Below are positions 29,261-49,329 of a DNA stretch of 64,000 nucleotides, one piece after another (the first letter of the stretch is position 1; each line of letters opens with the position of its first letter). Below the pieces are notes generated by a model, which ran no database searches, was not told the DNA's origin, and saw only the letters and a program-made list of their open reading frames with translations. The stretch lies in NCBI GenBank assembly GCA_046594105.1, contig JBKJQB010000010.1:14096-78095 (forward strand). Reading direction: 5' to 3'. Origin of the DNA: Thermoanaerobaculia bacterium. GTDB taxonomy: Bacteria > Acidobacteriota > Thermoanaerobaculia > Gp7-AA8. The translations under genes and the position numbers were made by a program.

Positions 29261-29298
29261 AAAACGGGCGGGCCGAAAGGTCCGCCCGTTTTCTTTTG
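29261..29298 (+). terminator. Rho-independent terminator after groEL
   Basis: aaaacgggcgggccgaaaggtccgcccgttttcttttgg, i.e. a GC-rich hairpin followed by a T tract. Confidence 0.85.
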
Positions 29299-29602: not shown

Positions 29603-29632
29603 GGGGCAGCGACGAATCGCTGCCCCTTCGCT
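29603..29632 (-). terminator. Rho-independent terminator downstream of the PAS-GGDEF-EAL gene (minus strand)
   Basis: Plus strand caaaacaaaaggggcagcgacgaatcgctgcccctt. On the minus strand the hairpin is followed by ttttgttttg. Confidence 0.6.
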
Positions 29633-29678
29633 ACGCGCCGGGACCTCGGAGGAGGCAACCCAGCTACCATCTCCTCGA

Positions 29679-31346
29679 TCAGTGCTGCATGAGCAGGACG
29701 TCCGCCAAATCCGCCGCAGGGCGGGGGCGTCCGAAGAAGAAGCCCTGCATGTCGTTGCAGCGCCGCTGCAGCAGGTGTGTCAGTTGGTCTTTCGATTCGA
29801 CGCCTTCCGCGACCACCCGCATGTTCAGCCCCTTGGCCATGGTGATCATGGCCTGGACGATCGCGGCATCATCCTGCCGGCGGGTCATGTTCTGCACGAA
29901 GCTTGGAGCGATCTTCAACGTGTTGACTGGCAGCACCTTCAAGTCGGCGAAGGAGCAGCCTCCGCTTCCGAAGTCGTCGATGGCCAGAAGGACGCCGAGA
30001 TCGCGCAGCTCATTCATGACCTCTCCGGCGCGGCTCTTCTTGGAGAGGATCGGCTCAGCGATCTCCAGTTCCAGCGACCCGTTCTCCAGCCCGCTGACCA
30101 GGACCGCCTGCTGCACGGTCTTCGCGAGACTCCGGCTGTAGAACTGATTCGAAGAGACATTGACCGCGACGCGCAGATTGCGCATTCCTTCCTGATGCCA
30201 CACCTTCGCCTGCCTGCAGGCTTCCGACACCACCCATTCGGTGATGGATGCATCCAGCTGGCCCTGCTCCGCTGCCGCAAGAAAGTCGGCAGCCGGAATG
30301 ATGCCCACGTCGGGATGTCTCCACCGCAGAAGGGCTTCGATACACTCGATGCGTCCGGTCTGCACGTTGACCTCGGGCTGATAATGAAGCTCGAATTCTC
30401 CGCGCGAAAGCGCGCGGCGAAGGCCTGAGATCAGCGCGGTCCGCTCCAGCACACGGGTGTTCAGCTCGCTGGTGTGGAAGTGGTAACGGTTGCGCCCGCG
30501 CTCCTTCGCGCCGTACGCCGCGGTGACTGCCTTCTGAATCAGGGTGTCTGCCTCTTCCCCATCTTCGGTGGAGACGCTGATCCCGATGCTTGCAGTCAGC
30601 CGGATGTCATGACCGGCGATGATGAGGGGCTTCTCCACGGAATCGAGGATCCGCTGGGCGACGACCGCGATATCGGCCTCCGCAACCACGTCCCCAAGGA
30701 CCACGATGAATTCATCGCTGCCAAAGCGCCCGACGGCATCTTCGATCCGCGTGGAGTCGATGATGCGGTCGGCCATCGCCTTGAGTACACGATCTGCGAT
30801 GCCATGGCCGAAGGCGCTGTTGATGACCTCGAAGTGATCCAGATCGACCACCAGGGTAGCCACGGCGGCAGGGCGGCGGCGAATTCGCGCCAGGGCAACT
30901 TTGAGCCGGTCGATGATCAGGGTGCGGTTCGGCAGGAGGGTCAGGCCGTCGTGCCCCGCCTGATACTCCAGGCTCTGCACTCCCAGCCGCTGCTCGGTGA
31001 CATCGAACATGGCTCCTTCGAGCCACAATGCCGAAGCGTCTTCCGAAGCCGTCACACGAAGGTTCTGCAAAACCCAGCAGACCGCGCCACCTTTCGTTCG
31101 CAACGCCACTTCGATGTTGGAAAGAGCACCTATGTCAGGAATCGCCGCGGAGATCGCCTGAAGGTCGGACGTATGCACGTAGGCGAAGCCGTTGGCCGCA
31201 AGAAGCTCCTCGCGGTCGTCGTAGCCAAGAATCCGGGCGCACGCGTCGTTGCAATCGAGAAGGGAGCCGTCGAGAGTCTGCCGGAAGAGGCCGACGAGGT
31301 CTGTGGTGCCGAGACTGCTGTCTGATAGGGCCATCATGATTTCCAT
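29679..31346 (-). CDS. PAS-GGDEF-EAL c-di-GMP turnover protein
   Basis: N-terminal PAS-like domain. GGDEF domain with GSDEF (RFGSDEF). EAL domain with EALLRW...QPE and DDFGSG motifs. Start at MEIMMA. Confidence 0.85.
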   Translation of the reverse strand: MEIMMALSDSSLGTTDLVGLFRQTLDGSLLDCNDACARILGYDDREELLAANGFAYVHTSDLQAISAAIPDIGALSNIEVALRTKGGAVCWVLQNLRVTASEDASALWLEGAMFDVTEQRLGVQSLEYQAGHDGLTLLPNRTLIIDRLKVALARIRRRPAAVATLVVDLDHFEVINSAFGHGIADRVLKAMADRIIDSTRIEDAVGRFGSDEFIVVLGDVVAEADIAVVAQRILDSVEKPLIIAGHDIRLTASIGISVSTEDGEEADTLIQKAVTAAYGAKERGRNRYHFHTSELNTRVLERTALISGLRRALSRGEFELHYQPEVNVQTGRIECIEALLRWRHPDVGIIPAADFLAAAEQGQLDASITEWVVSEACRQAKVWHQEGMRNLRVAVNVSSNQFYSRSLAKTVQQAVLVSGLENGSLELEIAEPILSKKSRAGEVMNELRDLGVLLAIDDFGSGGCSFADLKVLPVNTLKIAPSFVQNMTRRQDDAAIVQAMITMAKGLNMRVVAEGVESKDQLTHLLQRRCNDMQGFFFGRPRPAADLADVLLMQH

Positions 31347-31416
31347 CGCTAATCCGCACCTGCCAACGTACACGCTGGGAAGAGGGCCGGAAAGTACCGT
31401 TGGATGGAAAATGCCT

Positions 31417-32067
31417 CTATCGTTCGATAGAGGCTGGCGGGGGGTCGACCATCCCGCGATCGTAGGCATAGCGGGCCAGCTCGACGCGCCCATGGACGCC
31501 CAATTTCTCGTAAATCGCGTGGAGATGAGACTTAACCGTACCCTCCCCGATGACGAGTTGGGTGGCGATCTCCTTGTTGCGAAGGCCGGTGGCCACCATC
31601 TTGACGATGTCCGTTTCTCTCGGCGACAGGATCTCGGTGATTTTACGGGCGGCCGCCTCTCGTTTGAGGACGTGGTCCAGGGCCCTGCTGACCAGAGCGT
31701 TATCGAGAGCCCGCTCACCTGCCGCGACTCGACGTGCGCACTCCACCAGGGAGATGGCTGCGGCCTCTTTCAACACCAGTCCGCGCACCCCGGCCCGCAC
31801 GGCGTCCGCCACTTCTTCGTCATCCAGTGAGGCGGTCAGCAGCACCACTGCGGTGGGCAATTGCATGCCCTGCAGCTGGTGCAGTACCCACAACCCGTCC
31901 CCCTTGGGCATTCGCAGATCCACCACCAGCACGTCGGGGCGGAAGCGACGAACGGCGGTCACGGCGTCTTCGCCGCTGGTGCACGTGGCCACCACTTCGA
32001 AGTCTTCCTCGCGACGGAACAACTGTTCCAGCCCTTCGAGAATCATTCGATGATCGTCAGCCAGCAC
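31417..32067 (-). CDS. NarL/FixJ (LuxR)-family response regulator
   Basis: Receiver domain (LADDHRMILEGL...VVDLRMP...) plus C-terminal LuxR-type HTH (LSPRETDIVKMVATGLRNKEIATQL). GTG start by the track. An in-frame ATT at 32076 with SD GGAGGA 6 nt upstream is an alternative. Confidence 0.85.
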   Translation of the reverse strand: MLADDHRMILEGLEQLFRREEDFEVVATCTSGEDAVTAVRRFRPDVLVVDLRMPKGDGLWVLHQLQGMQLPTAVVLLTASLDDEEVADAVRAGVRGLVLKEAAAISLVECARRVAAGERALDNALVSRALDHVLKREAAARKITEILSPRETDIVKMVATGLRNKEIATQLVIGEGTVKSHLHAIYEKLGVHGRVELARYAYDRGMVDPPPASIER

Positions 32068-32075: not shown

Positions 32076-33254
32076 TCAGAAATCCTCCACAAAGCCCAGA
32101 GGCACTGTAATCTCGACACGGGCTCCCGAATCCGACGATTCGATCGCCAGATCACCATTCAGTGCGATCACCCGTTCGGCCAGCATCCTCGGTCCTCTCC
32201 CGCTTTCGCGAATGGCCTCCAGCAACATCCTTCCCCGCCATTCGAAGCCGCTGCCATCATCGCTGACTTCGATGCGGATCCGACCTTCGCCGGTCCGCAT
32301 TCGTACGTTAATATTTTTGGCGGCACCATGTTTCGCTGCATTCATCACCGCTTCGTGCAGGATCCGGTACGTTTCATGTCCCAGATGGCGCGAAACGGAA
32401 ACGTCGACACCGGAGAGATCGAGCAGCAGATGAATCGACCACTGCTGATGGAGCCTGGAAACGAGGTCCTGCAGACGGGCGTTGAAGTCAAAGGCGGATT
32501 CCGCGCGCGCCGCCCGCGGCCCGAGTTGCTCGACGAAGGATCTCAACTCGCGCTGATCGGCCATCAGCGAGGCTTCCGCCTCGGTGACCATTCGCTTGGC
32601 CCGCTCCGGTTCGGTCGTCAGAACACTGTGCGCCGTCTCCAGCTGCAGAACGATTCCGGTGAACGACTGCAGAAGACCGTCGTGAAGATCGCGGGCCACG
32701 CGCACCCGCTCCCGCGCCACCGCCTCGTCCGTCGACGCCACCACATGGATGTGGCGATCCAGCTGCTCCCCCACCAGGCGCCCCGCGGCATCCCCAGCCA
32801 GCAGCGCAAGCTCGAGATGCTCCCTTTCTGCAAACGACACGAAGACCCGCCCTTCTCCACGCGCCGCAATGATGGGGAACGTCAACATGGCATCGGAGGG
32901 CAGCTCGCCCAGCAACGCTTCGGTGATCACAGCCCCGGTCGCCCTGCTTTCACCGTCGGCGCGAACCACGCTGCCGCCTCGGGGCGACGAAACCCAGAAC
33001 GTGCTGCCGCTCAGCTCGGGGGCCACCGGTGGCGCGAATGGCTCGACTTTTTCTTCGCGACAGTGGAACTCATCCGAAGTGCACCGGGCGATGACCACCC
33101 ACGGCTCCTCCGACTCCTCCCAGGTCAGCAACGCGAACGTGGAATCGAAGATCGCGCAGACTTCTTCCAGTGCGCGTTTCAACGCTCCGCCCAGATCGTC
33201 CGGTTGAACCGAGGAACGCGACTGGAAACGGCTGCCGATCTCCCGAGCCGAGAA
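32076..33254 (-). CDS. Cytoplasmic sensor histidine kinase, NarL-type (HisKA_3 + HATPase_c)
   Basis: H-box RDLHDGLLQSFTGIVLQLE (HisKA_3). C-terminal N/G1/G2 ATPase boxes (HEAVMNAAKHG ... DDGSGF). N-terminal ~180-aa sensory region without TM. Start at MFSA. Confidence 0.7.
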   Translation of the reverse strand, partial: FSAREIGSRFQSRSSVQPDDLGGALKRALEEVCAIFDSTFALLTWEESEEPWVVIARCTSDEFHCREEKVEPFAPPVAPELSGSTFWVSSPRGGSVVRADGESRATGAVITEALLGELPSDAMLTFPIIAARGEGRVFVSFAEREHLELALLAGDAAGRLVGEQLDRHIHVVASTDEAVARERVRVARDLHDGLLQSFTGIVLQLETAHSVLTTEPERAKRMVTEAEASLMADQRELRSFVEQLGPRAARAESAFDFNARLQDLVSRLHQQWSIHLLLDLSGVDVSVSRHLGHETYRILHEAVMNAAKHGAAKNINVRMRTGEGRIRIEVSDDGSGFEWRGRMLLEAIRESGRGPRMLAERVIALNGDLAIESSDSGARVEITVPLGFVEDF

Positions 33255-33514
33255 CATGATCTCGAATGGTAACGCCGCGCCCGTCACCGCGACCGACCAA
33301 ATAGCGCCGGAAAGATTTCGATCCTGTAGGCAACATCGCAAGGATGTTCGCCATGGGGACCGATTCGGCGTCCAGTGGATGTGTCGCCAGCCCCTTCGCA
33401 ACGCCATGAGTCAGAACCCTTACACCAAGATCTCTGTGGCCAACGGCTATTACGATCTGGCCACTCCTCCCGCCGCTACTCTCCCGCCTTCGCTCTCGCT
33501 GTACCATGCGCGCC

Positions 33515-34322: not shown

Positions 34323-34937
34323 ATGGTCGACCGGCACGTAGCGGCCAGAGGGGTGCGCGACGCGCGGGTGCTGCAAGCCATGCGCGATGTGCCTCGGCAC
34401 CTGTTCGTCCCTTCCGTGATGGCGGCGAAAGCTTACGGGCCGGGAGCCCTCCCCATCGGCTCCAAACAAACCATTTCGCAGCCCTACATCGTGGCCAGGA
34501 TGATCGAGCTCCTGGATCTGAATGGCTCGGAGAAAGTCCTGGAGATTGGCACGGGAACGGGATATCAGGCCGTAGTCCTGTCGAAGCTATGCGCCAAAGT
34601 GTTTACTATCGAACGCCTCCCCGAACTGGCCATGCGCGCTGCCGAGCTGTTTCGCGATCTCAAAATCCACAATGCCAGCGTGAAGGTGTTCGACGGAACC
34701 TACGGATGGTCGGATCAGGCCCCCTTCGACCGGATCATCGTTGCCGCTGCAGCTCCGGCCGTTCCCGAACCGCTGGTCCAACAGCTTTCCCGAACGGGCA
34801 AGCTCGTCATTCCGGTGGGCCCGGAAGGCTCGCAGCGTCTGGCGCGCGTCACGCGGGTGGGCACAGGCGTGCAGATCGAAGACTGCGGCGGTGCGGAGTT
34901 CGTACCCCTGGTCGGAAAATTCGGCTGGAAGGAGTGA
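34323..34937 (+). CDS. pcm: Protein-L-isoaspartate O-methyltransferase
   Basis: VLQAMRDVPRHLFVP, TISQPYIVARM and VLEIGTGTGYQAVVLS motifs. The classic surE-pcm gene pair. Start could be as early as 34254, which would overlap surE. Confidence 0.85.
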   Translation: MVDRHVAARGVRDARVLQAMRDVPRHLFVPSVMAAKAYGPGALPIGSKQTISQPYIVARMIELLDLNGSEKVLEIGTGTGYQAVVLSKLCAKVFTIERLPELAMRAAELFRDLKIHNASVKVFDGTYGWSDQAPFDRIIVAAAAPAVPEPLVQQLSRTGKLVIPVGPEGSQRLARVTRVGTGVQIEDCGGAEFVPLVGKFGWKE

Positions 34938-34941
34938 GGCG

Positions 34942-35439
34942 TTGAAAGCGCGGACGCTCCTCATGGCCACCGCGATCGTCTCCTCCATTCTGGGGGCCGC
35001 CGTGGCCTACCTGGTCCTCACCGTTCCCAACGACATCAACGCTGCGGCGCTTTTGCGCAGGGCTCGAAAGGAGCTCGGCGAAGGCAATCGCGACGAGGCG
35101 CGCAAGGATCTTTCCAACCTGATCCAGCAATTCCCCCGTACAGATGCTGCGGGCGCGGCCACGGTGGCCCTGGCCTCCATCGCCGACAGCGAGCGTCACG
35201 GGCTGCAGAAACAGCTGGAGAATCTGCGGCGCGATGCGGCCGCCGACCGCAAGCAGATGGCTGCGCTTCAGACCCGGGTCGGACTGCTCTCCATGGCTGC
35301 GCCGGTGCCAGCGGCCGCTCCCCCCGCGCCCGTTCCGGTCCCTTCCCCGGCATTGAATATTGCGGCCCCTCCGAAGAAGACCGCGGCCCAGCCGCCGGTG
35401 CCTCATCGCGCGCGGTCCCATCGCCGCCGACGTCATTAG
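34942..35439 (+). CDS. Hypothetical membrane-anchored protein (N-terminal TM, TPR-like/coiled-coil middle, Pro/Ala-rich basic tail)
   Basis: TTG at 34942 with GGAG 7 nt upstream. Alternative start is ATG at 34963. No recognisable family. Confidence 0.35.
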   Translation: MKARTLLMATAIVSSILGAAVAYLVLTVPNDINAAALLRRARKELGEGNRDEARKDLSNLIQQFPRTDAAGAATVALASIADSERHGLQKQLENLRRDAAADRKQMAALQTRVGLLSMAAPVPAAAPPAPVPVPSPALNIAAPPKKTAAQPPVPHRARSHRRRRH

Positions 35440-35481
35440 ACCGGCGAGAGAGGTGGTCGTTTGCGCGTACAATCTGCCGCC

Positions 35482-35760
35482 ATGGCCAAAGAACAACGCC
35501 TCATCCGCATTCAGGGGAAAGTCCAGGGCGTGGGCTATCGATTCTTCGCCACCCGCGTGGCCCGGCGGCTCGGGCTGAAGGGCTCCATCCAGAATCTGCG
35601 CGACGGAACCGTGGAAGCGGTGGTGGAAGGGGAAAAGACTTCCATCGATGAGTGGATCGAGGAGCTCCGCGAGGGGCCCCGGTACGCCGAAGTCGTCACC
35701 ATCGAGCAGGAATCGAAAGACTTCACGGGCAAGCTCCCCGACTTCGACGTCAAGTTCTGA
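35482..35760 (+). CDS. acyP: Acylphosphatase
   Basis: VQGVGYR signature and GxVxN (LRDGTVEAVVEG). 92 aa. Confidence 0.8.
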   Translation: MAKEQRLIRIQGKVQGVGYRFFATRVARRLGLKGSIQNLRDGTVEAVVEGEKTSIDEWIEELREGPRYAEVVTIEQESKDFTGKLPDFDVKF

Positions 35761-35770
35761 GACCGACCGA

Positions 35771-36283
35771 ATGGATCTGCGATCTCTGATCCGCGACATC
35801 CCGGACTTCCCGAAACCGGGGATCGTTTTCAAGGACATCACTCCGCTGCTTCGCTCGCCCGGAGCTCTCCACTACGCCGGCGAAGCGATGGCCGCACCGT
35901 TTCGCGATCAAAACATCACCGCCGTCGCAGCGATCGAATCGCGCGGATTCATCTTCGGCGCGGCGGTCGCTCACATCCTCGGAGTCGGATTCGTCCCCAT
36001 CCGCAAGCCGGGAAAGCTTCCGTTCAAGACGCGACGGAACGAGTACACACTCGAATACGGCAGCGGGATTCTGGAAATCCACGATGACGCGCTCACTCCG
36101 GACGATCGCGTCCTGATTGTCGACGACGTGCTGGCCACCGGCGGCACCGCCTCCGGAGCAGCGGCCCTGATCCGCGACTTCGGAGCGGCGATCGCCGGCG
36201 CATCCATGCTCATCGAGCTCGCTTTCCTGGACGGCCGCAAGTGCCTGCCCGGGTTGCAGATTCGCTCCCTGATCACCTACTGA
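35771..36283 (+). CDS. apt: Adenine phosphoribosyltransferase
   Basis: MDLRSLIRDIPDFPKPGIVFKDITPLL... and the PRPP-binding motif VLIVDDVLATGGT. Confidence 0.9.
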   Translation: MDLRSLIRDIPDFPKPGIVFKDITPLLRSPGALHYAGEAMAAPFRDQNITAVAAIESRGFIFGAAVAHILGVGFVPIRKPGKLPFKTRRNEYTLEYGSGILEIHDDALTPDDRVLIVDDVLATGGTASGAAALIRDFGAAIAGASMLIELAFLDGRKCLPGLQIRSLITY

Positions 36284-37731: not shown

Positions 37732-37962
37732 TCACTCCAGACGCAGATGCAGAGCTGGCGACTCTCCGCTCAAATGAACGCCCGGCTGCAGCTCGAAGGC
37801 CTCGTCCGCCGTACTGGCGCCCCCCAGCAGCAGGCAGAGACGCGCAAAATCCTTGAACGCAGATGCGTCGCCGTGCAGCGTGACGCGATCGCCTTCCACG
37901 GAGAGCCGCAGCCGCGATCGTGTCAGCCCTTCCAGAGCCATCATGGCAAGGTCGTAGTTCAC
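37732..37962 (-). CDS. Hypothetical 76-aa protein, translationally coupled (ATGA) to queD
   Basis: ATG overlaps the queD stop (atga at 37959-37962). High GC3, consistent with coding. No recognisable domain. Confidence 0.35.
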   Translation of the reverse strand: MNYDLAMMALEGLTRSRLRLSVEGDRVTLHGDASAFKDFARLCLLLGGASTADEAFELQPGVHLSGESPALHLRLE

Positions 37963-38372
37963 GCTTCGTCCTCCCCGCGGTAAACAACCGAGTTCTTCTC
38001 GGTTTCCTGCAGGCGGATCTCCTGCAGCGAGCCGTGATCGATCGCCCCTGCCAACTGCTGCCAGAAGGAGCGGGCAAGATTCTCCGCCGTGGGGATGACG
38101 TCGCGCAGGAAGTCTACGTCGGTGTTGAGGTTACGATGATCGACGCGATCGATCACGTTCTTCCGCACGATGTCTTTCAGCTTCTTCAGATCGATGACCA
38201 TTCCGGTGTCTTCATCGATCACGCCCCTGACGCTGACTTCGATCGCGTAGTTGTGACCGTGCCCCCCGGGATTGTCACACTTGTCGTACGTTCGCCGGTT
38301 CCAGTCGGCGTCGAATTTCGGGTTGTGGAGCCGGTGCGCGGCCGAGAAAGTCAGGCGGGCGGTGACGATCAT
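37959..38372 (-). CDS. queD: 6-carboxy-5,6,7,8-tetrahydropterin synthase (QueD/PTPS family)
   Basis: RLTFSAAHRLHNP...CDNPGGHGHNY has the Cys and His Zn ligands of the PTPS fold. 137 aa. Confidence 0.85.
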   Translation of the reverse strand: MIVTARLTFSAAHRLHNPKFDADWNRRTYDKCDNPGGHGHNYAIEVSVRGVIDEDTGMVIDLKKLKDIVRKNVIDRVDHRNLNTDVDFLRDVIPTAENLARSFWQQLAGAIDHGSLQEIRLQETEKNSVVYRGEDEA

Positions 38373-38434: not shown

Positions 38435-41338
38435 CTATCGCGGAACGTCCTGCAACGCTGTGCGAATCTCCTGTTGCTGACGTCGAAGCAGGTCAGATAG
38501 CGGCTGGAACCTCGCATCGCTGCGCAGAAATCCGAAGAGGGGATTGGCCAGTACGTAGCTTGCGGTTGGCTCCTGTCGCGCCGCGGCGCGCTCGAGCGCA
38601 TCGAAGGTGCCGCCGACGTCCCCCCGCAGCGCGGCAATTTCTGCGACGCTGGTCCGAAAGTCGTCGCCGGGCCGCGAGAGCGCTTCCGCAGCCTTCAGTT
38701 CCAGGCTGGCCTCCGCGGTCGCGTGGGCCTCCGCGGCCAGGTACGCCTTCACCAGATGCACCCCGTAGTCAGCCTGCAGCCTCTGCAATTGCTTCAACTC
38801 GGTCTCGGCGATTTCCTTTGAGTGGCGCAGGACAGCAATCCGGCCGATTTTCAAACGAAGCGCCGGGTTGTTCGGAGTCTTCAGCTCTTCGTCGTAGTAC
38901 TGCGTGACCGCGGCGTCGATCTTTCCTGAGGCGGCAAGGCTGTCGGGACCGTGAAGCTCGGATTGATCGCGTGACGCCAGGGCCCGCAGGCAGGCCGCAA
39001 AGGTCTTTCCGTCGCCCACTGCAAGCGCGTACTTGCCAACCACGTTCAGCGCCTCGAGATCCTGACGGTCCCCTTTGAGAATGGTCGCGTAGGCCCGCAG
39101 GGCGGACGGCGCATCTCCAGCCTTCAGTGCGGCATGAGCCACCATCCTGGCCGCGTCAAGGTTGGCCGGGTCGAGGGAAGAGATCTGCTTCGCCAGGATC
39201 ACGGCATCTGCGTCTTTGCCCCGCTCGGCGAAGAACCTCATCGCTACGATCTGGGCGGGCAGCAGAGCGGGATCCGCTTTCATCGACGCTCTGAGCGCCG
39301 TCTCCGCTCTCCCATCGTCTTTTGCCGCGATCGCTTCCACCGCTTCGGCAAAAGCATTGCCCGCCTCTGCGGTCGCCGTCGTTTGCCGGTGCAGCCTGAT
39401 CTCCGCGACCACCAGCCCTACCATCGACTGCACGCCGCTCCATGCATCAGGAAACGGAACTGCCGTTCCTCGCTTCCCGGCCGCTCCCGTCGGAACGATT
39501 TGCGCCGCAGCGCCTCCTCCACGCACGTCCGCAGTGAACGCGCTGACATCAGCACCCGGGGAATCGACCACCCTCAACTCAGGGTACGTCCGCAGGACCT
39601 CGGCGACGCTCTTGCGAACGTTGTCAGCTCGCTGCTGCATGGCTGCATCCGCAGGCTCGACGTGGAAGGGCGAAACCATCACCTTCCGCGGATTGGAGGC
39701 GGAGGCCACCATCAACCCAGTGCCTGCTGAGGCCGTGGGGACCGAAACGGCCGGCCGCCGCATGAAGAACACCGCAGCGACGAGAAGGAGCACCACTGCC
39801 GCACCGGCGACCATCGCCAGCCGCATGCGTTTCCGCTTGCCCTCCGCAATCGCTTTTGCGGCCGATTCCGCCGCAACAGCCTCCGCTTCCGCAGCAGCGA
39901 TCGTCGCCGCTTCTGCCGCCTTGGGTTTCGGCTTCGTCTCTTCCACAGGAGCCAGCTCATAAAGCTTGACGCCGGCGCGCGCGCCGGCGTCCCGCATGCG
40001 CACGTTGCCTCGCCCTCGCTTCACAAACTCCTCTGTCACGAATAGCTGCAGGGGCTCCAGGTGCGTCAGGACCTCGCGGGACTTCTCAACAGCCCTCCCC
40101 ACGACCACTCCCTGCTCCATGCCCACTTCCCCTGCATGGAGCAGCATGCGCACCGGGATAAACTCGGTACCTTGCTGCTCCAGAGAAAAATCAAATTCTC
40201 CCTTGCGACCTGCTTCCAGAGCGCGTTCGACGTCAGGAAGCTCGGCGATCATGTGCGGACCGAAGGGATCCAGCACGTTTCCATCAAACAGGTACACCGC
40301 TTCCCCGAGGATCTGCTGCATGCGGGCCGCCGCGCGAACCGCCGATGCGGGATCCACCCTCATCAGCTCGTCGTGATTGGCGATGTCGGCAATGAAGATG
40401 ATCGCGTTGCGCATCGAGTCCGACACTGCCGACGCTGCCACTGCCGCTCCGTTACCCTGGCTGGACAGGGAGGCCGCCGCCCGGGACACCTCATTGGCAA
40501 ACTTCACGGAGCCGGGGTCCATGCGCACGATCTCGTCGACCAGGGACTTCGCGTCTTTCTGCCGCTTGAACGGATCCCTGAACAGACACTTGCCCATGAC
40601 CGACAGGACGGCGTTGTCGATGCCTGGATGGATCGACTTCGGCGAGGGCGGATTCTCTTCCATGATCTTCCGGGCCACCTCGGCTGCGGTTTCGGCGAGG
40701 TATGGCGCCCGTCCGGTCGCCATTTCGTAGAGCACGATGCCCGTCGAGAAAATGTCTGTCAGCGGTGTCAGGGCCTGACCGCTGATCTGCTCCGGCGCCA
40801 TGTACGCGACGGAGCGCAGATCACTGCCGCGCTGCTGGTACGTCGTGCTCTCTCGCTTAGCCATGAGGTTGGAAACGTTCAACCCGGCCAGCCTCACCTG
40901 CCCACTGGCCGCGATCAGTACCGAATCGCCGGCGATGTTGCCGTGGATGACTTCCTTGGCGTGCAGAAGCTTCACCACGTCGGCCAGTTGATAGGCCATG
41001 TGGAAAAAGTCCTCCCGGCCGGCCGGCTTCCCTCGAACGATCGCCGACAGCGGTTTCGATTCGAACCAGTCCATGACCAGGAGCAACACTTCGCCGGCGG
41101 CGGTCAACTCGATGATGTGCACCAGCGAGGTGTGGTACAGGGCAGCACCGAGACGCACGTCGCGGATCAACGCTTCGCGCCGGACGGGATCACGCGGCAA
41201 CTGTTTGGTGAGAATCTTGAGGGCGACCTTCTTGCCGGTCCGGGTGTCTTCAGCCGACCAGACCGAGGGGCCTACCCGATCAAGCAGCCGATACGAGAGG
41301 ATCGTATTTCCCGGAGAGAATGGATCGACGGCAGACAT
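38435..41338 (-). CDS. Membrane protein: degenerate Ser/Thr kinase domain, degenerate class-III cyclase domain, TM segment, periplasmic/TPR-like region
   Basis: Kinase fold with VALKIL Lys and APE (YMAPEQ) retained, but HRD->HGN (VIHGNIAGDS) and DFG->GLN (RLAGLNVS). The cyclase-like segment FIADIANHDEL...LFDGNVL...RMLLHAGEVGMEQGVVVGRAVEKS lacks the second metal Asp. TM helix LAMVAGAAVVLLLVAAVFF. C-terminal Ala-rich TPR-like repeats. Confidence 0.75.
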   Translation of the reverse strand: MSAVDPFSPGNTILSYRLLDRVGPSVWSAEDTRTGKKVALKILTKQLPRDPVRREALIRDVRLGAALYHTSLVHIIELTAAGEVLLLVMDWFESKPLSAIVRGKPAGREDFFHMAYQLADVVKLLHAKEVIHGNIAGDSVLIAASGQVRLAGLNVSNLMAKRESTTYQQRGSDLRSVAYMAPEQISGQALTPLTDIFSTGIVLYEMATGRAPYLAETAAEVARKIMEENPPSPKSIHPGIDNAVLSVMGKCLFRDPFKRQKDAKSLVDEIVRMDPGSVKFANEVSRAAASLSSQGNGAAVAASAVSDSMRNAIIFIADIANHDELMRVDPASAVRAAARMQQILGEAVYLFDGNVLDPFGPHMIAELPDVERALEAGRKGEFDFSLEQQGTEFIPVRMLLHAGEVGMEQGVVVGRAVEKSREVLTHLEPLQLFVTEEFVKRGRGNVRMRDAGARAGVKLYELAPVEETKPKPKAAEAATIAAAEAEAVAAESAAKAIAEGKRKRMRLAMVAGAAVVLLLVAAVFFMRRPAVSVPTASAGTGLMVASASNPRKVMVSPFHVEPADAAMQQRADNVRKSVAEVLRTYPELRVVDSPGADVSAFTADVRGGGAAAQIVPTGAAGKRGTAVPFPDAWSGVQSMVGLVVAEIRLHRQTTATAEAGNAFAEAVEAIAAKDDGRAETALRASMKADPALLPAQIVAMRFFAERGKDADAVILAKQISSLDPANLDAARMVAHAALKAGDAPSALRAYATILKGDRQDLEALNVVGKYALAVGDGKTFAACLRALASRDQSELHGPDSLAASGKIDAAVTQYYDEELKTPNNPALRLKIGRIAVLRHSKEIAETELKQLQRLQADYGVHLVKAYLAAEAHATAEASLELKAAEALSRPGDDFRTSVAEIAALRGDVGGTFDALERAAARQEPTASYVLANPLFGFLRSDARFQPLSDLLRRQQQEIRTALQDVPR

Positions 41339-41372: not shown

Positions 41373-41876
41373 TCATGAAGGATCGATCTGAATGAGCTCC
41401 GCTCCACTGTCGACCGTATCGCCGATCCCCACGAAGACTTCGGTGACGATTCCATCCGCAGCGGAGGCAATCTCGTTCTCCATCTTCATCGCTTCGAGAA
41501 CGAGCAGCGCGCCACCTTTGCTTACGGAATCGCCTTTCTTCACCAGGACACGGACGATGCGACCGGGCATCAGTGCTCGAATCAACCCTCCGGCGGCAAC
41601 CTCGTCCTCTGTTCTGCTACGTTTCACGGAGAGTGGATCGGTGATCTCGACATGAATCGACGATGCCAGAAGTGTGATCTCGTGCATTGCACCGCTGCGA
41701 TGATCGATCAGCGAGAACTGCCGCCCATCCTCGAGCCGGAGAGACTGGATATGGCCACCCGCGGTCACCAGATCCGCCGTGATCATCTTTCCGTCGACGA
41801 TCACCCGATACCCGGCGCCGACGCGCTCCACTTCAATGGCCATCTCGCGGCCGTCATGGCGGGCCACCAGTTTCAT
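41373..41876 (-). CDS. accB: Biotin carboxyl carrier protein (biotin/lipoyl attachment domain)
   Basis: Biotinylation motif EAMKMENEI near the C-terminus. ATGA coupling to the upstream biotin carboxylase. Start chosen at MKLVA. Confidence 0.7.
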   Translation of the reverse strand: MKLVARHDGREMAIEVERVGAGYRVIVDGKMITADLVTAGGHIQSLRLEDGRQFSLIDHRSGAMHEITLLASSIHVEITDPLSVKRSRTEDEVAAGGLIRALMPGRIVRVLVKKGDSVSKGGALLVLEAMKMENEIASAADGIVTEVFVGIGDTVDSGAELIQIDPS

Positions 41877-43372
41877 CGGTCGCCCCGCAAGCCATCCCGC
41901 CGCCCCGACCACTTCCATGGCGAGTCGGCCTCTTCCGGGAGCCTGACCTGCTGCGATTCCTCGAAGGCCAGAATCGCCGCGGCAGTGATGGCCGCCTCGA
42001 CCTCCCTGCCGTCGGCTCCCCCCTGCTCCAGATTCATCTGAGGGAGGATCCGATCGATGAACCCGGTATCGAACCGAGCCTCACGAAACTCGGGGTGATC
42101 CATGAGCCAGGTGAAAAACGGAATGGTGGTCTGGATCCCTTCCACGCGGTACTCCATCAGCGCACGGCGCATCCGGGCGATGGTCTCAGCCCGCGTGGCC
42201 GCGTGACAGATCAGCTTCGAGAGCATCGGATCGTACGCGACCGGCACGGTGTATCCGCCGTACACGCCGTTGTCGTTCCGCACCCCGGGCCCCTGCGGAA
42301 GATTGATGAAACGAATCAGTCCAGGAGAGGGGGCGAATTTGCGTGCCGGATCCTCCGCGTAAATGCGGCATTCGATGGCGTGGCCACTCGGCTTCAGCTG
42401 CTCCTGCCGCATGCTGATTCGCTCGCCGCGGGCCACGCGGAGCTGCTCCTTGACCAGATCGACTCCCCACACCATCTCGGTGACCGGATGCTCCACCTGC
42501 AGACGAGTGTTCATCTCCAGAAAGTAGAACTGCTGATCGGGTCCCATCAGGCACTCGACGGTTCCGACAGAAAAGTAGTCGACCGCTTTTGCAGCCTGCA
42601 CCGCCATGGCCCCGAGCTTCTCCCTCAGTTCCGGCCCGACGACCGGCGACGGGCACTCTTCCACAACTTTCTGATGACGTCGTTGCAGCGTGCATTCGCG
42701 CTCTCCGACGTGGACCAGATTGCCATGCTGATCGCCGAGGACCTGCACTTCGATGTGACGCGGCGAGGCGACGAACTTCTCTGCGTAGACCGATCCGTCG
42801 CCGAAGAAGGATTGCGCCTCACTGGTCACCCGATCGTAGGCAGCCCTGAGATCCTCTGATTTCTCGACCAGGCGCATTCCCTTGCCGCCGCCACCCGCGC
42901 TGGCTTTCACCATGATCGGGAAACCGGACGCTTCTGCAAACGCTGCAATCTCGTCGAAGGATTTGACCGCCTCGGTCAGCCCGGGAACCACGGACACTCC
43001 AGCAGCCTGCATTCTCTGCCGCGCCTCCGTCTTGGAACCCATGGCATCGATGGCTTCCGGTGAAGGCCCGATGAAGATGAGCCCCGCATCGCGCACCGCC
43101 CGGGCAAATGCCGCGTTCTCGGCGAGAAATCCATATCCGGGATGGATGGCTTCGGCCCCGGTCTTCTTCGCGGCGTCCAGGATGCGGTCCACCCGCAGAT
43201 AGCTTTCCCGCGAAGGGGCCGGACCGATGGGCATGGCTTGATCCGCGTAGACCACGTGGAGAGCCGCTCGATCGGGCTCCGAGTAGACCGCGACGGTCGG
43301 GTAGCTCAATTCGCGGCAGGCGCGAATGACGCGCACGGCGATCTCTCCGCGGTTGGCAATCAGCACTTTCAT
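41873..43372 (-). CDS. accC: Biotin carboxylase (acetyl/acyl-CoA carboxylase subunit)
   Basis: MKVLIANRGEIAVRVIRACRELSYPTVAVYSEPDRAALHV... ATP-grasp fold. 499 aa with a ~50-aa C-terminal extension relative to typical AccC. No carboxyltransferase gene in the window. Confidence 0.9.
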   Translation of the reverse strand: MKVLIANRGEIAVRVIRACRELSYPTVAVYSEPDRAALHVVYADQAMPIGPAPSRESYLRVDRILDAAKKTGAEAIHPGYGFLAENAAFARAVRDAGLIFIGPSPEAIDAMGSKTEARQRMQAAGVSVVPGLTEAVKSFDEIAAFAEASGFPIMVKASAGGGGKGMRLVEKSEDLRAAYDRVTSEAQSFFGDGSVYAEKFVASPRHIEVQVLGDQHGNLVHVGERECTLQRRHQKVVEECPSPVVGPELREKLGAMAVQAAKAVDYFSVGTVECLMGPDQQFYFLEMNTRLQVEHPVTEMVWGVDLVKEQLRVARGERISMRQEQLKPSGHAIECRIYAEDPARKFAPSPGLIRFINLPQGPGVRNDNGVYGGYTVPVAYDPMLSKLICHAATRAETIARMRRALMEYRVEGIQTTIPFFTWLMDHPEFREARFDTGFIDRILPQMNLEQGGADGREVEAAITAAAILAFEESQQVRLPEEADSPWKWSGRRDGLRGDR

Positions 43373-43437
43373 CGGGGCGCATTGTAATCGGGGGGCGTTG
43401 TAATCACGGCGATCCGAAGGCTGATAAGATCCGACCC

Positions 43438-43758
43438 ATGGCTGAAGCCTCACTGCATGACCAGCGGATGGACATTCTCTCCGGCGTGGTCAAGGTATTG
43501 CTCGACGACCTTCAGCAGGGTCGGGGAGACAAGGACCGACGACGTCAGGTCGAGGAGTGGCTGCGCGGTCTGGCGGAAAAGTACCCCGAGTTCGCAATCG
43601 AGACGGGGCTGCGCGACTACTACCTGGCGGAGGCCAAACGCCTGCGCGGAGACTTCGACCAGACCTCTGAGATCAACGACAAGCTGGCCCTGGGCCGGTC
43701 CATCGAGGGTTTTCTCGACCGTGCGGCAGATTACGATCGCCGTATCACCGAGCGCTGA
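43438..43758 (+). CDS. Hypothetical 106-aa protein
   Basis: Divergent from accC. Charged, helical. No recognisable motif. Confidence 0.35.
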   Translation: MAEASLHDQRMDILSGVVKVLLDDLQQGRGDKDRRRQVEEWLRGLAEKYPEFAIETGLRDYYLAEAKRLRGDFDQTSEINDKLALGRSIEGFLDRAADYDRRITER

Positions 43759-43843: not shown

Positions 43844-43928
<85 letters not shown>

Positions 43929-45133: not shown

Positions 45134-46141
45134 TCAGAATGCGAACCGGTCTTTTCCCGACCGTTTGGCTTCATAGAGACGCTCGTCGGCTCGCCTCATC
45201 AGGTCGGCCTGCGTCTCATCGTCAGGCCGCAGGTTGGCAATCCCAATGGAGATCGAACATTGAACACTTCCCTCTTCCGTCGCCTGGAGATTGAGACCCC
45301 GAAGTTTCTGCAGAAACCTCTCCGCCACCGCCACGGCACCAGGCAGATCGGTATGTGGCAGAATCAAGGCAAACTCATCCCCCCCGTAGCGGGCAAAAAA
45401 ATCGGGGGGGCGCAGCGTTTCCCGAATGGCGGCGCAAATCTCCGACAGCACGACATCACCCATGGGATGGCCGAACGTATCGTTGATCAACTTGAAATCG
45501 TCGATGTCGATCATCAGCAGCGAGAGCGGGACGCCGTAGACGCGCGCTCGATCGATTTCCTGCGGCAGCTTGGTGCTGAACGCGCGCTTGTTCGAGATCC
45601 CGGTCAGGTGATCCGTATCGGCCAGACTCTGGATCTGCCGTCGCGCTTGGATCTGGGTAATGAGCATCGCCACCTGGGCCGAGAAGATGTCAAGAATCTG
45701 GTGTTCCGTGGTCGAGAACACCTGGGTCGTGCGGAAGGTGATCAGAAGACCAGCAGTACGACCTTCGAGCTCAATGAGCGCGTGAGTAGACTCCAGGAGA
45801 TCGCCCGTCCCCGACGACGGAGCGGAAATCATGGTCTCTGAGCGGATGACCACGTCTGTCGTCTGGAAGGAGATCGGGATGACGTCTTCGAGCGCCCCCC
45901 TGATCTTTGCAATCAGCCCTTCGTTGACCAGAGGGACCGTCACTTCACTCATGGCCAGATGCAGTTCGAGGGTCTGCTCGAGCATGACTGCGACGGCCAG
46001 GTCGAAGGCAACGTATTGATGCAGGACCGGCAGCGCTTCCGAGAAAAGGTCGGCAACGGTTTCCGCCCGGGCCACGCGTCCGCCCAGATCTCGAATCAGC
46101 GCGAGAACATCACCGATCTGCTGATGGACTGATTCGACCAC
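45134..46141 (-). CDS. GAF-GGDEF diguanylate cyclase
   Basis: N-terminal GAF-like domain. C-terminal GGDEF with the intact active site RYGGDEF and an I-site-like RxxD upstream. Confidence 0.8.
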   Translation of the reverse strand: MVESVHQQIGDVLALIRDLGGRVARAETVADLFSEALPVLHQYVAFDLAVAVMLEQTLELHLAMSEVTVPLVNEGLIAKIRGALEDVIPISFQTTDVVIRSETMISAPSSGTGDLLESTHALIELEGRTAGLLITFRTTQVFSTTEHQILDIFSAQVAMLITQIQARRQIQSLADTDHLTGISNKRAFSTKLPQEIDRARVYGVPLSLLMIDIDDFKLINDTFGHPMGDVVLSEICAAIRETLRPPDFFARYGGDEFALILPHTDLPGAVAVAERFLQKLRGLNLQATEEGSVQCSISIGIANLRPDDETQADLMRRADERLYEAKRSGKDRFAF

Positions 46142-46192: not shown

Positions 46193-48115
46193 ATGGTTGA
46201 GTCTTCAGCGATTCCATTCGAGCACCATGACTTACGAGGCGAACGCCTTCTGGTCCTGGCCCCCCATCCGGACGACGAGGTCATCGGATGCGGCGGAGTC
46301 CTGGCCCGCCATCTGGACCTCGGCTGCCCCGTACGGATCCTGATCGCCACCGACGGCTCGGAGGCCGATCCCGGCGAAGCCGATCGGGATGCCTACCGGG
46401 ACCGGCGGGAACAGGAGACGCGCCAGGGACTCGCTCTTCTGGGTGGAGTCTGCGAAATCACCTTCCTGCGCGCGCCCGATCGCGGTCTGGCCGCAGCAAG
46501 CCCCTCAGTGAGCGCCGCGATCGCGGGACTGTTACGAACCTTCCGTCCCGACCTGATCCTGCTCCCCAGCCCGATCGAGATTCATCCCGACCACTCGGCC
46601 CTCGCCCAATTATTCTGCCAGCTCATTCAGGGCGACCAGACCCTCGCCGCCGAGCTCGCCGTGACTCGAGTCGGTTTCTATGAGATCGGCCAGCCCCTTC
46701 GCCCCAATGTCCTCGTCGACATCACAGACGTCGCCGAACGGAAGTATGCGGCCATCTCTGCTCATGCCTCCCAGACCGCGCTGCACGACTACGTGGGCTT
46801 CACGCGAGGACTGAACGCCTACCGTGCTATGACCCTGACTGCCGATTGCTCTCGGGCCGAGGCGTACTGGGTGACCGACCTGCCGGAGTTGCGCACGCTG
46901 CCCTATTCCGCTCTCCAGCATCGAATGGGCGACGCTCGCGGCACCATCGAGGTCATCGGCGAAACCACGCCGATCAGCGTCATCATCCGGACCAGGAACC
47001 GGCCGGGCCTGTTGCGTGAGGCTCTCCAGTCCGTCCGGTCCAACGGCTATCCGGCAGAGATCGTGGTGGTCAATGACGGCGGTACGCCAGTCACCGCGGA
47101 AGACGTCACCCTCATCGTTCACGAGGAATCGCTGGGGCGCGCGGAAGCGGGAAATCGGGGCGTCCGCGAGGCAACGTCCGAGTTCGTCACTTTTCTGGAT
47201 GATGACGACCTCTACTATCCGGAGCATCTGCAGACCCTTTCCAACGCAGCGGCCGTCATGACCGGCGCGGCGTGCTACACCGACGCCGTCTCCGCATTCG
47301 TAGCCACCGGTACTTCGGGAAGTCTGGAAACGCGCTCCCGGCAACGGTTGTTCGCACGCGACTTTGACCCGGATCTGCTGCTGATCGACAACTACATCCC
47401 GCTACCGACAGTCATCGTGTCCCGGACGAATTTTCTCGACAGCGGCGGCTTCGACCCCGCGTTCGACCTTTTCGAAGACTGGGATTTCCTGATCCGGCTT
47501 TCCCGGCTGGGGCGGTTCACTCGGGTGCCGCGCATCACCTGCGAGATCCGTCACATCGAGGATAGCGGCTCGATCACTCTGACAGCTCCTGAAGGCTCCG
47601 CTCCATTCCGGAAGGCCAAGCTGCAGGTCTGGCAGAAACACGCCGCCCTCATCAACAATAATCTGATGGCCAGCGTGTTCGAAATGCAGAAGCGGGATGC
47701 TGGGCAAGTTTACGCTCAGAGGATCGAGGCAAGCGGGCTGGCCGCGTTTCACGAGCAGAGTGCCCGGCGCGTCGAGCGAGAGAAGCAGTCGCTGATCGAG
47801 CGCCTGCAGGAGCAGAACGAACATCTGAATGAAGCCGTCGTGCGCGGCAGCAACCTCGCTGGCCAGATCCGGGGCATGGAGATCCATCACGACGAGATGA
47901 GGGAAAGCCTGGCCCGATTGGAAAACGAGCGCAACGATCTCCTGGTCCGACTGGCCATCCTGGGTGACGCGCGGGTCGCTTTCGATGAGACCCAGCGGAC
48001 GATCGGGGTCCTCTACGCGGAGATCGCACGCCTTCAGAACCTCCTCGACACCATCTACGGCTCCCGCACGTGGAAGCTGCACAACGTGGTGCAACGAATC
48101 AAGGGCCAGGGTTGA
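46193..48115 (+). CDS. Fusion: PIG-L/LmbE-family N-deacetylase, GT2 glycosyltransferase, C-terminal coiled coil
   Basis: LmbE motif APHPDDEVIGCGG at the N-terminus. GT2 module from ~aa 270 (ISVIIRTRNRPGLLREALQSV...VVVNDGGT...FLDDDD DxD). Coiled-coil tail aa 520-640. Confidence 0.75.
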   Translation: MVESSAIPFEHHDLRGERLLVLAPHPDDEVIGCGGVLARHLDLGCPVRILIATDGSEADPGEADRDAYRDRREQETRQGLALLGGVCEITFLRAPDRGLAAASPSVSAAIAGLLRTFRPDLILLPSPIEIHPDHSALAQLFCQLIQGDQTLAAELAVTRVGFYEIGQPLRPNVLVDITDVAERKYAAISAHASQTALHDYVGFTRGLNAYRAMTLTADCSRAEAYWVTDLPELRTLPYSALQHRMGDARGTIEVIGETTPISVIIRTRNRPGLLREALQSVRSNGYPAEIVVVNDGGTPVTAEDVTLIVHEESLGRAEAGNRGVREATSEFVTFLDDDDLYYPEHLQTLSNAAAVMTGAACYTDAVSAFVATGTSGSLETRSRQRLFARDFDPDLLLIDNYIPLPTVIVSRTNFLDSGGFDPAFDLFEDWDFLIRLSRLGRFTRVPRITCEIRHIEDSGSITLTAPEGSAPFRKAKLQVWQKHAALINNNLMASVFEMQKRDAGQVYAQRIEASGLAAFHEQSARRVEREKQSLIERLQEQNEHLNEAVVRGSNLAGQIRGMEIHHDEMRESLARLENERNDLLVRLAILGDARVAFDETQRTIGVLYAEIARLQNLLDTIYGSRTWKLHNVVQRIKGQG

Positions 48116-49329
48116 GCACCGCCCTCCTCGTCTGTCCCGAGCCCCTCGGGCATCGACAGCCGGCAGGGATCGGCATCCGTTTCCTGGAAATGGCTCGCGT
48201 GCTACGGGAAGACGGCCATTCCATCATCCTGCTGACTCCAGATGGCGCCGGTGTGGCCGGATATCAGACCGCCACCCTCACGCCGCAGTCACTGCGGGAT
48301 TGCTCGGCACGCGCGGACGTCGCAGTGGTCCAGGGACACGTCGCCAATGAGCTCTGGGCGCATGGCTCGGTAATTCCCACGGTGGTCGATCTCTACGATC
48401 CGTTCATCGTCGAGAACCTGCACTACTACACCACTCGGGGGTCTGAGGTTTTTGCTCACGATCACCAGACCTTGATGGCGTCGCTGCGCCGGGGCGACCT
48501 TTTCCTCTGCGCCTCCTCCTCCCAGCGATTCTTCTATCTGGGGATGCTGCTGGCTGCCGGAAGACTGAACCCCATCAGTTTTGAATCGGACCCCACGCTG
48601 CAGTCGCTCCTTCGCCTTGCGCCATTCGGGGTCAGTCCGGCGATCCATCGCACCGGCGCGGAGCCGGACCGTACGGCCGTGCTCTTCGGAGGAATCTACG
48701 ACTGGTACGACCCGATTCTCGCCATCGATGCCGTTGTGCTGGCGCGGCGCGAGATCTCCGACCTGTCCATCACCTTCACCACGCATCCCAATCCATCCAG
48801 CACTCCGCAGAGCCGAACCGCCCAGGCCATCGCGCACGCCGACCGCCATGGGTACGGCCAGTTCGTGCACTTCCGGCCGTGGGTTCCCTACGAGGCCCGG
48901 GCTGAGTTCTACGCCGATTTCTCGGTTGCCCTGCTGACGTTTTCCCCCTCGCTGGAGACGGATCTCTCCATGCGGACACGCGTGTACGACTACCTCTGGG
49001 CAGGGCTTCCAGTGGTCACCAGCTCCGCGCCGGGAACGGATGAAATCATCGAACGATACCGGGCCGGTTCCGTCGTGAGCGGCGGATCCGCGTCAACTTT
49101 TGCCGAGGCTCTGGTGCGGACCATCGCCGATCGCCAATCGACGCAGCCAGGCCTCCGGGAGTTCGTCCGCGATCACCAGTGGGAGAAGACCCTTTCGCCG
49201 CTCGTTGAGTTCGTCCGCTCACCTCGAATGGATCCGACCAAACGGACTTTCGCGACAGCGTCGTCGCTTCCGAAACAGGCGGCCTCCGTCCTCCACCGGC
49301 TTCGCCGGCGCATGGGAGGCCGGTCCTGA
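48112..49329 (+). CDS. GT4-family (GT-B fold) glycosyltransferase
   Basis: TTG start overlaps the upstream stop (TTGA). C-terminal GT4 block YDYLWAGLPVVTSSAPGTDEII (E-x7-E region). Confidence 0.7.
   Translation: MSTALLVCPEPLGHRQPAGIGIRFLEMARVLREDGHSIILLTPDGAGVAGYQTATLTPQSLRDCSARADVAVVQGHVANELWAHGSVIPTVVDLYDPFIVENLHYYTTRGSEVFAHDHQTLMASLRRGDLFLCASSSQRFFYLGMLLAAGRLNPISFESDPTLQSLLRLAPFGVSPAIHRTGAEPDRTAVLFGGIYDWYDPILAIDAVVLARREISDLSITFTTHPNPSSTPQSRTAQAIAHADRHGYGQFVHFRPWVPYEARAEFYADFSVALLTFSPSLETDLSMRTRVYDYLWAGLPVVTSSAPGTDEIIERYRAGSVVSGGSASTFAEALVRTIADRQSTQPGLREFVRDHQWEKTLSPLVEFVRSPRMDPTKRTFATASSLPKQAASVLHRLRRRMGGRS

Follow-up and report, generated by a model that had tools for sequence, protein, structure and literature searches.

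What can a membrane receptor do when both of the signalling domains on its cytoplasmic side appear to have lost the residues on which catalysis depends? The question is raised by a gene within a 64,000-nucleotide (nt) stretch of a Thermoanaerobaculia genome (contig JBKJQB010000010.1, positions 14,096 to 78,095; the whole stretch is referred to below as the window), whose 967-amino-acid (aa) product comprises, from N- to C-terminus, a kinase fold, a fold of the class III cyclase-homology domain (CHD), a linker, a transmembrane (TM) helix, a periplasmic alpha/beta domain, and a TPR superhelix. A first-pass annotation of the DNA had viewed this protein as a scaffold or allosteric sensor rather than an enzyme, which the present analysis leaves as a reasonable reading, since the catalytic residues of both folds are predicted from alignments to be lost across the family and the protein is under purifying selection. 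We favour the view that the product is a non-catalytic, single-pass (N-in/C-out) TM protein acting in signalling or as a scaffold, and belonging to a family whose named members to date all come from Thermoanaerobaculia and other Acidobacteriota; we would give this reading a probability of about 0.6.

The gene lies on the minus strand, with an ATG at 41338 and its stop codon at 38435-38437. The open reading frame (ORF) spans 41470 to 38435, so that the ATG is internal to a longer frame, and the N-terminus that it specifies (MSAVDPF...) agrees with the consensus start (MS..DPF) of 120 full-length orthologues, which align at 99-100% coverage and 51-95% identity. The gene boundaries first proposed are thus right at both ends.

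The N-terminal domain scores 98.8 bits against PF00069 (cutoff 31.7; E 4.5e-28) and 100.9 bits against PF07714 (cutoff 23.1), both profiles, Pkinase and PK_Tyr_Ser-Thr, aligning to aa 26-261, and its best relatives in the PDB are the mycobacterial kinases PknA and PknB (E 1e-25 to 1e-23). Residue equivalences were taken from a pairwise alignment to PknA and from a hidden Markov model (HMM) alignment with a PknB row that served as ruler only. By both, the ATP-anchoring beta3 Lys and the APE motif, described earlier as kept, are indeed present, as K41 in VALK(IL) (canonical VAVK) and at 181-183 (with E183), and the Arg of subdomain XI is retained as R259. The catalytic loop reads HGNIAGDS against the canonical HRDVKPAN, with Asp replaced by Asn, Lys by Ala and Asn by Ser (HGN being residues 132-134), and the metal-binding DFG has become GLN at 152-154. 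The two substitutions already noticed, HRD to HGN and DFG to GLN, therefore hold residue by residue against PknA and PknB, and the losses are wider than first described, taking in the catalytic-loop Lys, the Mg-binding Asn, and the Gly-rich loop, which is some 3-4 residues shorter and has a single Gly (VG-PS-VW versus G-FGGMS-EV in PknB). None of the signatures of a competent Hanks-type Ser/Thr kinase (HRDxKxxN, DFG Asp, GxGxxG) is intact in the query.

This pattern recurs among relatives. Throughout the 120 close orthologues the beta3 Lys is invariant (120/120), the HRD site reads H-[L/G]-N, with the Asp position occupied by Asn in 119 and by Asp in one, the catalytic-loop Lys position is Ala in 117 and the Asn position Ser in 119, and the DFG site is G-[LF]-N, its Gly and Asn present in every one. 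The alphaC position, D60 in the query, is Asp or Glu in 104 of the 120, Ala also occurring among them, and varies in distant members. Further out, no HRD Asp or DFG Asp is found in any of 37 kinase-bearing representatives of clusters at 50% identity, where the catalytic loop reads HGR, HGS, HGA, HGG, HGE, HGT or HAN, the DFG site GLG, GFS, GIG or GFT, and the beta3 Lys is replaced by Arg or Glu in several. All 37, like the query, lack the signature of a competent kinase. The kinase residues conserved family-wide (H132, G152, P182, E183, D195, G200, R259) are structural ones only. On these alignments the kinase fold is predicted to be catalytically dead.

Sequence-defined verdicts of this kind have their precedents to reckon with, since WNK, CASK, Haspin and SelO are all kinase folds that are active in atypical ways. 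The fold might accordingly be imagined to carry out phosphotransfer or AMPylation through a relocated N134, D138 or N154, an idea encouraged by the near-invariance of N134, D138, S139 and N154 and the invariance of K41 in the close orthologues. Across the wider family, however, the residues at the catalytic loop and DFG site vary, conservation is confined to structural positions, and the kinase active site offers no other acidic or basic residue that the whole family conserves; N134 and D138 stay fixed only in close orthologues, and their variation in distant members argues against a relocated active site. Orthologues at the same locus that have no kinase domain at all (see below) are also hard to square with an essential catalytic role, and we consider an atypical active enzyme very unlikely.

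The domain that follows the kinase fold had been called a class III cyclase homology domain, although Pfam gives no hint of it: Guanylate_cyc (PF00211) has no match at E<=10 in the whole protein or in 20 isolated copies (aa 296-475) from family members and is likewise silent on the proteins P0168, P0172, P0160 and P0190. The possibility that this is no CHD was rejected on three counts. A profile built from the 20 copies (A1) matches the solved CHDs 3mr7 (E 5.5e-5) and Rv1900c/1ybt (E 0.06). An AlphaFold2 (AF2) model derived from A1, with a mean predicted local distance difference test score (pLDDT) of 82 and a core above 90, finds class III adenylyl or guanylyl cyclases in all of its top 50 Foldseek matches in the PDB (E 1e-7 to 4e-5, probability 1.00). 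Lastly, an exhaustive HMMER run of A1 against 1.84 billion representatives returned 1513 matches at E<=1e-3, the weaker of which are ordinary cyclases (Guanylate_cyc confirmed by Pfam in 6 of 6 sampled), so that the family grades continuously into Pfam-positive cyclases. The earlier domain call is thereby borne out, at the level of a fold whose core is beta-alpha-alpha-beta-beta-alpha-beta, by profile and structure alike; a separate homologue search with the CHD profile gave only short fragments of the same family.

Its catalytic columns were read from a single HMM alignment of 51 family rows, these being representatives that carry the family's periplasmic domain, against 78 distant, Pfam-recognisable CHDs, which mostly show D/K/GD/N/R. 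The first metal Asp had been placed in FIADIANHD, and D318 in FIADIAN does align with it; most members have Asp or Glu there, and some distant ones Leu, Ala, Ile or a gap. The second metal Asp is lost, as had been stated, but not at LFDGNVL, which aligns with the canonical 'hGG'; the actual site lies 8 residues further on, at P361 in DPFGP, where the canonical GD has become GP and the family shows Gly followed by Pro, Ala, Ser or Thr. The substrate-selecting Lys is replaced by Asp (D357 in the query), invariantly in the 51 rows, the transition-state Asn by E418 (Asp, Glu or Thr in the family), and the transition-state Arg by E422, in a variable column in which a few rows have Arg. Asp2, the substrate Lys and the Asn are absent from all 51 rows. 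The phosphate-binding G-F/Y-S/T loop after Asp1, canonically VGYS, reads ANHD in the query and [DE]..PYY (PYYD) in the family. Of the set that defines an active class III cyclase (two Asp, Lys/Glu, Asn and Arg) the query holds D318 only, and the CHD fold too is predicted, by alignment, to be catalytically dead. The domain also contains segments conserved specifically in this family (MQQxLGE...FDG...D and EAxRKGEFDFS), and of all 50-residue stretches of the protein the one with the highest conservation in the orthologue alignment, aa 351-400, lies within it.

Domains that no longer turn over a substrate may still bind one, and one or both of these folds could hold ATP, GTP or a cyclic nucleotide, its occupancy setting the conformation of the protein; the kinase-homology domain found in the receptor guanylyl cyclases (GCs) of animals and a class III cyclase-like ATP-binding protein of Pseudomonas aeruginosa are examples of such binding. 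Consistent with an allosteric sensor of this sort are the invariant beta3 Lys and mostly acidic alphaC residue of close orthologues, the Asp or Glu kept at metal Asp1 by most members, and the presence among the structural matches of 6yii, a degenerate CHD termed ATP-binding by its depositors. Set against these are a Gly-rich loop reduced to one Gly, the loss of both the DFG Asp and the Mg-binding Asn, a CHD devoid of the phosphate loop, of the adenine/guanine-selecting Lys (here an invariant Asp), of the Asn and of the Arg, and distant members in which the beta3 Lys (Arg or Glu) and Asp1 (Leu, Ala, Ile or a gap) have gone as well. With both phosphate-binding loops degraded, the binding of a nucleotide without its turnover seems less likely than protein-protein scaffolding, and we regard it as unlikely.

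Could the degeneracy simply reflect sequencing error or a decaying gene? This explanation was rejected, as the substitutions are common to the orthologues and distant representatives and the ratios of nonsynonymous to synonymous substitution rates (dN/dS) lie at 0.13-0.26. Intact members of the family, which would have betrayed a local error, were not encountered: the kinase-bearing representatives all lack the HRD and DFG Asp, and the 51 CHD rows all lack Asp2. The degenerate residues are hence a conserved family trait in both domains, over the 120 orthologues and over the 37 and 51 representatives, respectively. With the closest orthologue (L003) as reference, the CHD-like and alpha/beta domains each have a dN/dS of 0.14, the linker with the TM helix has 0.13, the TPR region 0.16 and the C-terminal part of the kinase fold 0.26; purifying selection acts on every domain. 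Among 185,579 species genomes scanned there were 88 relatives, and the 80 listed, each on a separate contig and the nearest 96% identical, are all from Thermoanaerobaculia or Acidobacteriota metagenome-assembled genomes (MAGs), as are the named members of the sequence clusters in their taxonomy.

Not every member of the family has the kinase fold. When four HMMs, one for each part of the protein, were scanned over 141 new representatives, about 38 clusters showed the full architecture, at 940-1060 aa, and about 14 clusters, of 620-730 aa, showed the CHD-like, TM and TPR parts only; these shorter proteins start at a Met with short, unrelated N-terminal tails. Two such kinase-less orthologues (P0168 and P0172) occupy the very slot in which the query gene sits, between a gene for a biotinyl-domain protein (BCCP) and one of the PTPS family (L083 6001-8064, 687 aa; L086 1477-3513, 678 aa). 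Both begin at a genuine Met with no space left upstream, and kinase-less orthologues match the TPR region at E 1e-50 to 1e-91. The pseudokinase is dispensable in some lineages, and these two same-slot orthologues indicate that the core module is pseudo-CHD-TM-TPR, to which the pseudokinase is an accessory. A third kinase-less relative (P0178; L085 993-2996) lies outside the slot and adjoins genes for a GGDEF-EAL protein, a GerE response regulator and a HisKA_3 kinase.

Between the CHD fold and the membrane runs the linker, aa 463-506, the least conserved stretch of the orthologue alignment. A single TM helix, as had been proposed, fits the hydropathy profile, in which aa 507-527 form the only strong peak, about one unit above the next (inside the kinase fold). 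The flanks carry a net charge of +4 before the helix and 0 after it, and the KRKRMR that precedes the helix puts the kinase fold and the CHD fold on the cytoplasmic side. The part beyond the membrane had been taken for some 480 aa of TPR-like repeats; its TPR nature holds, but the extracytoplasmic region comes to about 440 aa and its first 100 or so form a separate alpha/beta domain (beta-alpha-beta-beta-beta-alpha, opening with an 'RKVMVSPF' strand; AF2 pLDDT about 85-94). No Pfam family matches the query over this domain. An active relative with CHD-TM-TPR architecture (P0225) has Pfam TolB_N (PF04052) at the equivalent position, and by this analogy the alpha/beta domain is possibly TolB_N-like. 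The remaining 310 aa or so, the largest part of the protein, form a superhelix of stacked helix-turn-helix units of TPR type, with generic structural matches that do not point to a function.

A periplasmic region of this size could itself be the working part of the protein, which would then be an envelope-assembly or structural factor that chaperones or tethers an envelope, pilus or exopolysaccharide component, the dead domains being its anchor or tail; TPR proteins of the PilW/PilF, BamD and LapB types are models for such a role. The TPR region is strongly conserved as well as large, and is shared with the kinase-less orthologues, and the gene keeps to one recurrent slot among housekeeping genes in the genomes scanned. 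Yet the structural matches of the TPR region are generic, the most conserved block lies in the CHD-like domain, beyond what a passive anchor needs, and the nearest active relatives are receptor-type cyclases, for which reasons an envelope factor seems to us rather improbable.

How, then, might a non-catalytic signalling or scaffold protein of this kind work? The TPR superhelix, together with the small alpha/beta domain, would bind a periplasmic protein, a peptide or a component of the envelope. The nearest active relatives being Guanylate_cyc-TM-(TolB_N)-TPR proteins, a receptor-type topology is ancestral. By analogy with the cyclase fold, the CHD-like domain would serve as a dimerisation and transducer module that shows its family-specific conserved surface to a cytoplasmic partner, and the pseudokinase, where present, might supply a further surface for docking or allostery, used for instance by an active Hanks kinase, a phosphatase or an FHA protein, as eukaryotic pseudokinases are known to do. 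Neither phosphotransfer nor cyclic nucleotide synthesis would be expected from the protein itself.

CHDs dimerise obligately, head to tail, and build their active sites from residues of both partners; it is conceivable that the dead CHD pairs with an active one, silencing or tuning it. The shared active sites of CHD dimers and the descent of the family from CHD-TM-TPR cyclases would suit a dominant-negative or regulatory partner of this kind. Against it, no active CHD gene was found in the window or in the gene tables of the conserved neighbourhood, and, both halves of the active site being lost, any heterodimer would be fully inactive; we find the proposal highly improbable. No second kinase, CHD or related TPR gene that might encode a partner was found in the window.

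The gene belongs to a conserved arrangement, accC-BCCP-X-queD, in which it is X. Among 82 related loci, biotin carboxylase and the biotinyl-domain protein are encoded upstream in 74-76 and QueD/PTPS downstream in 71, most exceptions being contig ends. In the window (Table 1) the gene starts 34 nt downstream of the stop of the biotinyl-domain gene, and queD is followed by a small ORF with a GTG start and a 4-nt overlap with the end of queD. At four other loci (L001, L002, L084 and L086) PTPS is likewise followed by counterparts of 76-84 aa, with 45-59% identity to the window's ORF at L001, L002 and L084 and no Pfam family recorded for any, and the small ORF appears to be part of the same co-oriented gene string. 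A scan for promoters and terminators gave no promoter-like sites around the gene and terminator-like sites only at chance level. In one Thermoanaerobaculia MAG (L084 3652-4869) two opposite-strand genes of the Uma2 family (PF05685) stand between the biotinyl-domain and pseudokinase genes, so that tight adjacency to BCCP is not obligatory. Given this insertion and the kinase-less relative found elsewhere, a functional link to accC, BCCP or queD was not adopted, and the synteny is read as part of a conserved core-genome order and given no weight in matters of function.

Table 1. Features of the pseudokinase/pseudo-CHD gene, the parts of its product, and the adjoining co-oriented genes, in window coordinates
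Feature	Position	Strand	Basis
Whole gene, pseudokinase/pseudo-CHD/TM/TPR protein	38435..41338	-	ORF, translation, 120 orthologues
Hanks-type kinase fold, aa 12-275, predicted inactive	40514..41305	-	Pfam Pkinase, PknA/PknB alignments
Divergent class III CHD fold, aa 309-462, predicted inactive	39953..40414	-	Profile-PDB match, AF2/Foldseek
Ala/Glu/Lys-rich linker, aa 463-506, KRKRMR at end	39821..39952	-	Sequence; orthologue alignment
Single TM helix, aa 507-527, N-in/C-out	39758..39820	-	Hydropathy, flanking charge
Periplasmic alpha/beta domain, aa ~550-648	39395..39691	-	AF2 model
Periplasmic TPR-like superhelix, aa ~657-963, about 20 helices	38450..39370	-	
Biotin carboxylase	41873..43453	-	Upstream, co-oriented ORF
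Biotinyl-domain protein, 181 aa	41373..41918	-	Pfam Biotin_lipoyl match
QueD/PTPS	37959..38372	-	Pfam PTPS E 6e-35
Conserved 76-aa ORF	37735..37962	-	GTG start, overlaps queD stop by 4 nt

Some further features of the surroundings may be recorded. The order biotin carboxylase then biotinyl-domain protein is the reverse of the usual accB-accC, the two ORFs, at the coordinates in Table 1, overlap by about 46 nt, and the biotinyl-domain protein has a long N-terminal extension. Signalling genes in the window encode a GGDEF-EAL protein, a HisKA_3 histidine kinase and a GGDEF protein, at 29679..31718, 32076..33407 and 45134..46141, all on the minus strand, and a GGDEF-TIM-SecG arrangement similar to that of the window precedes accC at L083. 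Two sizeable minus-strand ORFs, at 27496..29670 (724 aa) and 34849..35841 (330 aa), drew no Pfam hit at E<=1e-5. A plus-strand ORF of 640 aa (46193..48115) fuses a PIG-L deacetylase to a family 2 glycosyltransferase, a fusion also seen at the edge of L083, and is followed by a GT1-type glycosyltransferase (48070..49329). The window's only tRNA gene, for tRNA-Leu (GAG), lies at 43844..43928 on the minus strand, between secG and the biotin carboxylase gene.

Several points weigh against reading the product as a non-catalytic sensor or scaffold. The beta3 Lys and the acidic alphaC residue, kept in 120 and 104 of the 120 close orthologues, may allow some nucleotide binding, and several 'pseudokinases' defined by sequence have proved active by unusual mechanisms. 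The C-terminal part of the CHD model, corresponding to the canonical beta7-beta8 arm, has a pLDDT of only about 50 despite its highly conserved sequence. The gene order with accC, BCCP, queD and the 76-aa ORF may reflect a connection to metabolism or housekeeping for which a generic sensor or scaffold does not account. A bolder proposition goes beyond the non-catalytic reading itself, namely that the class Thermoanaerobaculia as a whole maintains, at one recurring genomic position, a receptor with two dead output domains, signalling purely by conformation and protein-protein contacts, in which the pseudo-CHD is a non-enzymatic but essential transducer; we advance it tentatively, and with more doubt than conviction.

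Were that so, the kinase-homology/cyclase tandem of animal receptor GCs would have in this protein a bacterial equivalent that goes a step beyond it, with the cyclase fold put to a new, non-enzymatic use in the pseudo-CHD. Eukaryotic pseudoenzymes have been studied well, bacterial ones much less, and the family offers a clean natural case in which two different dead signalling folds share one receptor, their degeneracy kept across many species under purifying selection. The same-slot orthologues with and without the pseudokinase amount to a natural domain-deletion series that separates the contribution of that domain, with the practical limit that the carriers named so far are all uncultured MAGs. 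Databases label the protein 'protein kinase' or 'hypothetical protein', the CHD-like domain being missed by Pfam, and a definition of this domain would put right the labels of hundreds of Acidobacteriota proteins and give the class III cyclase superfamily a further, non-catalytic branch.

Pseudokinases, degenerate CHDs and TPR receptors are each known already, and what seems new here is the tandem of a predicted dead kinase and a predicted dead CHD in one receptor; literature searches, whose coverage did not extend to the pseudokinase survey of Kwon et al. (2019), gave no description of a pseudokinase/pseudo-cyclase fusion architecture. Among characterised bacterial families, the TOMM kinase/cyclase fusion (TIGR03903) also has a kinase followed by a cyclase-type domain, but the query scores 58.7 bits against a cutoff of 705.75 and covers only model positions 2-244 of 1267 with aa 34-270, and differs in length and in the domains downstream. 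Against the Stk1/PknB PASTA kinases (NF033483) it reaches 167 bits for a cutoff of 450, through the kinase part only, and its extracytoplasmic region is alpha/beta plus TPR. Assignment to the TOMM fusion, PknB-PASTA, StpK7, MADS6 or PknD equivalogs was rejected, all scores falling far under the NCBIfam cutoffs. The P. aeruginosa protein 6yii likewise has a CHD fold and is not a cyclase (Foldseek E 1.5e-5); it shares 11% identity and has another architecture, and its depositors term it ATP-binding, whereas here the phosphate-binding loop is lost.

The 2025 atlas of bacterial Ser/Thr kinases (bSTK atlas) describes seven pseudokinase families (CP1, DYD, ActPs1-3, DLHK and GLW), in all of which the VAIK Lys is substituted, universally in five of them and in 34-60% of members in the remaining two, and the word cyclase is absent from its main text (bioRxiv 10.1101/2025.01.12.632604). 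ActPs1-3 and GLW have lost the HRD Asp and the DFG Asp, as has the kinase fold considered here. In the present family, by contrast, the Lys is kept in all 120 close orthologues, which argues against the five atlas families whose every member has lost it, and a CHD fold is present. The family thus seems not to be among the seven, set apart as it is by the descriptions in the atlas, not by its sequences.

In animal receptor GCs of the GC-A and GC-C type, a ligand-binding domain is followed by a TM helix, a pseudokinase and a CHD, the pseudokinase being regulatory and non-catalytic. The likeness to the present protein, in which a pseudokinase likewise stands directly N-terminal to a CHD in a single-pass receptor, is an analogy of architecture alone, and common descent of the fusion finds no support here: the animal proteins have an active CHD and an N-terminal TM helix and sensor, this one a dead CHD and a C-terminal TM helix and sensor, and no coiled-coil signalling helix is evident between its kinase and CHD folds, unlike in the animal receptors. 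Closest of all are the CHD-TM-(TolB_N-like)-TPR class III cyclases, which have the same order and topology as the C-terminal three quarters of the protein and include the nearest recognisable relatives of its middle domain (P0208, P0225 and P0230; E about 1e-15 to 1e-17 with A1, Guanylate_cyc confirmed by Pfam), with a weak similarity extending to the TPR region (E 1e-4 to 1e-6). These cyclases keep D/K/GD/N/R, whereas the pseudo-CHD family has lost all but Asp1, and most of its members also carry an N-terminal kinase fold.

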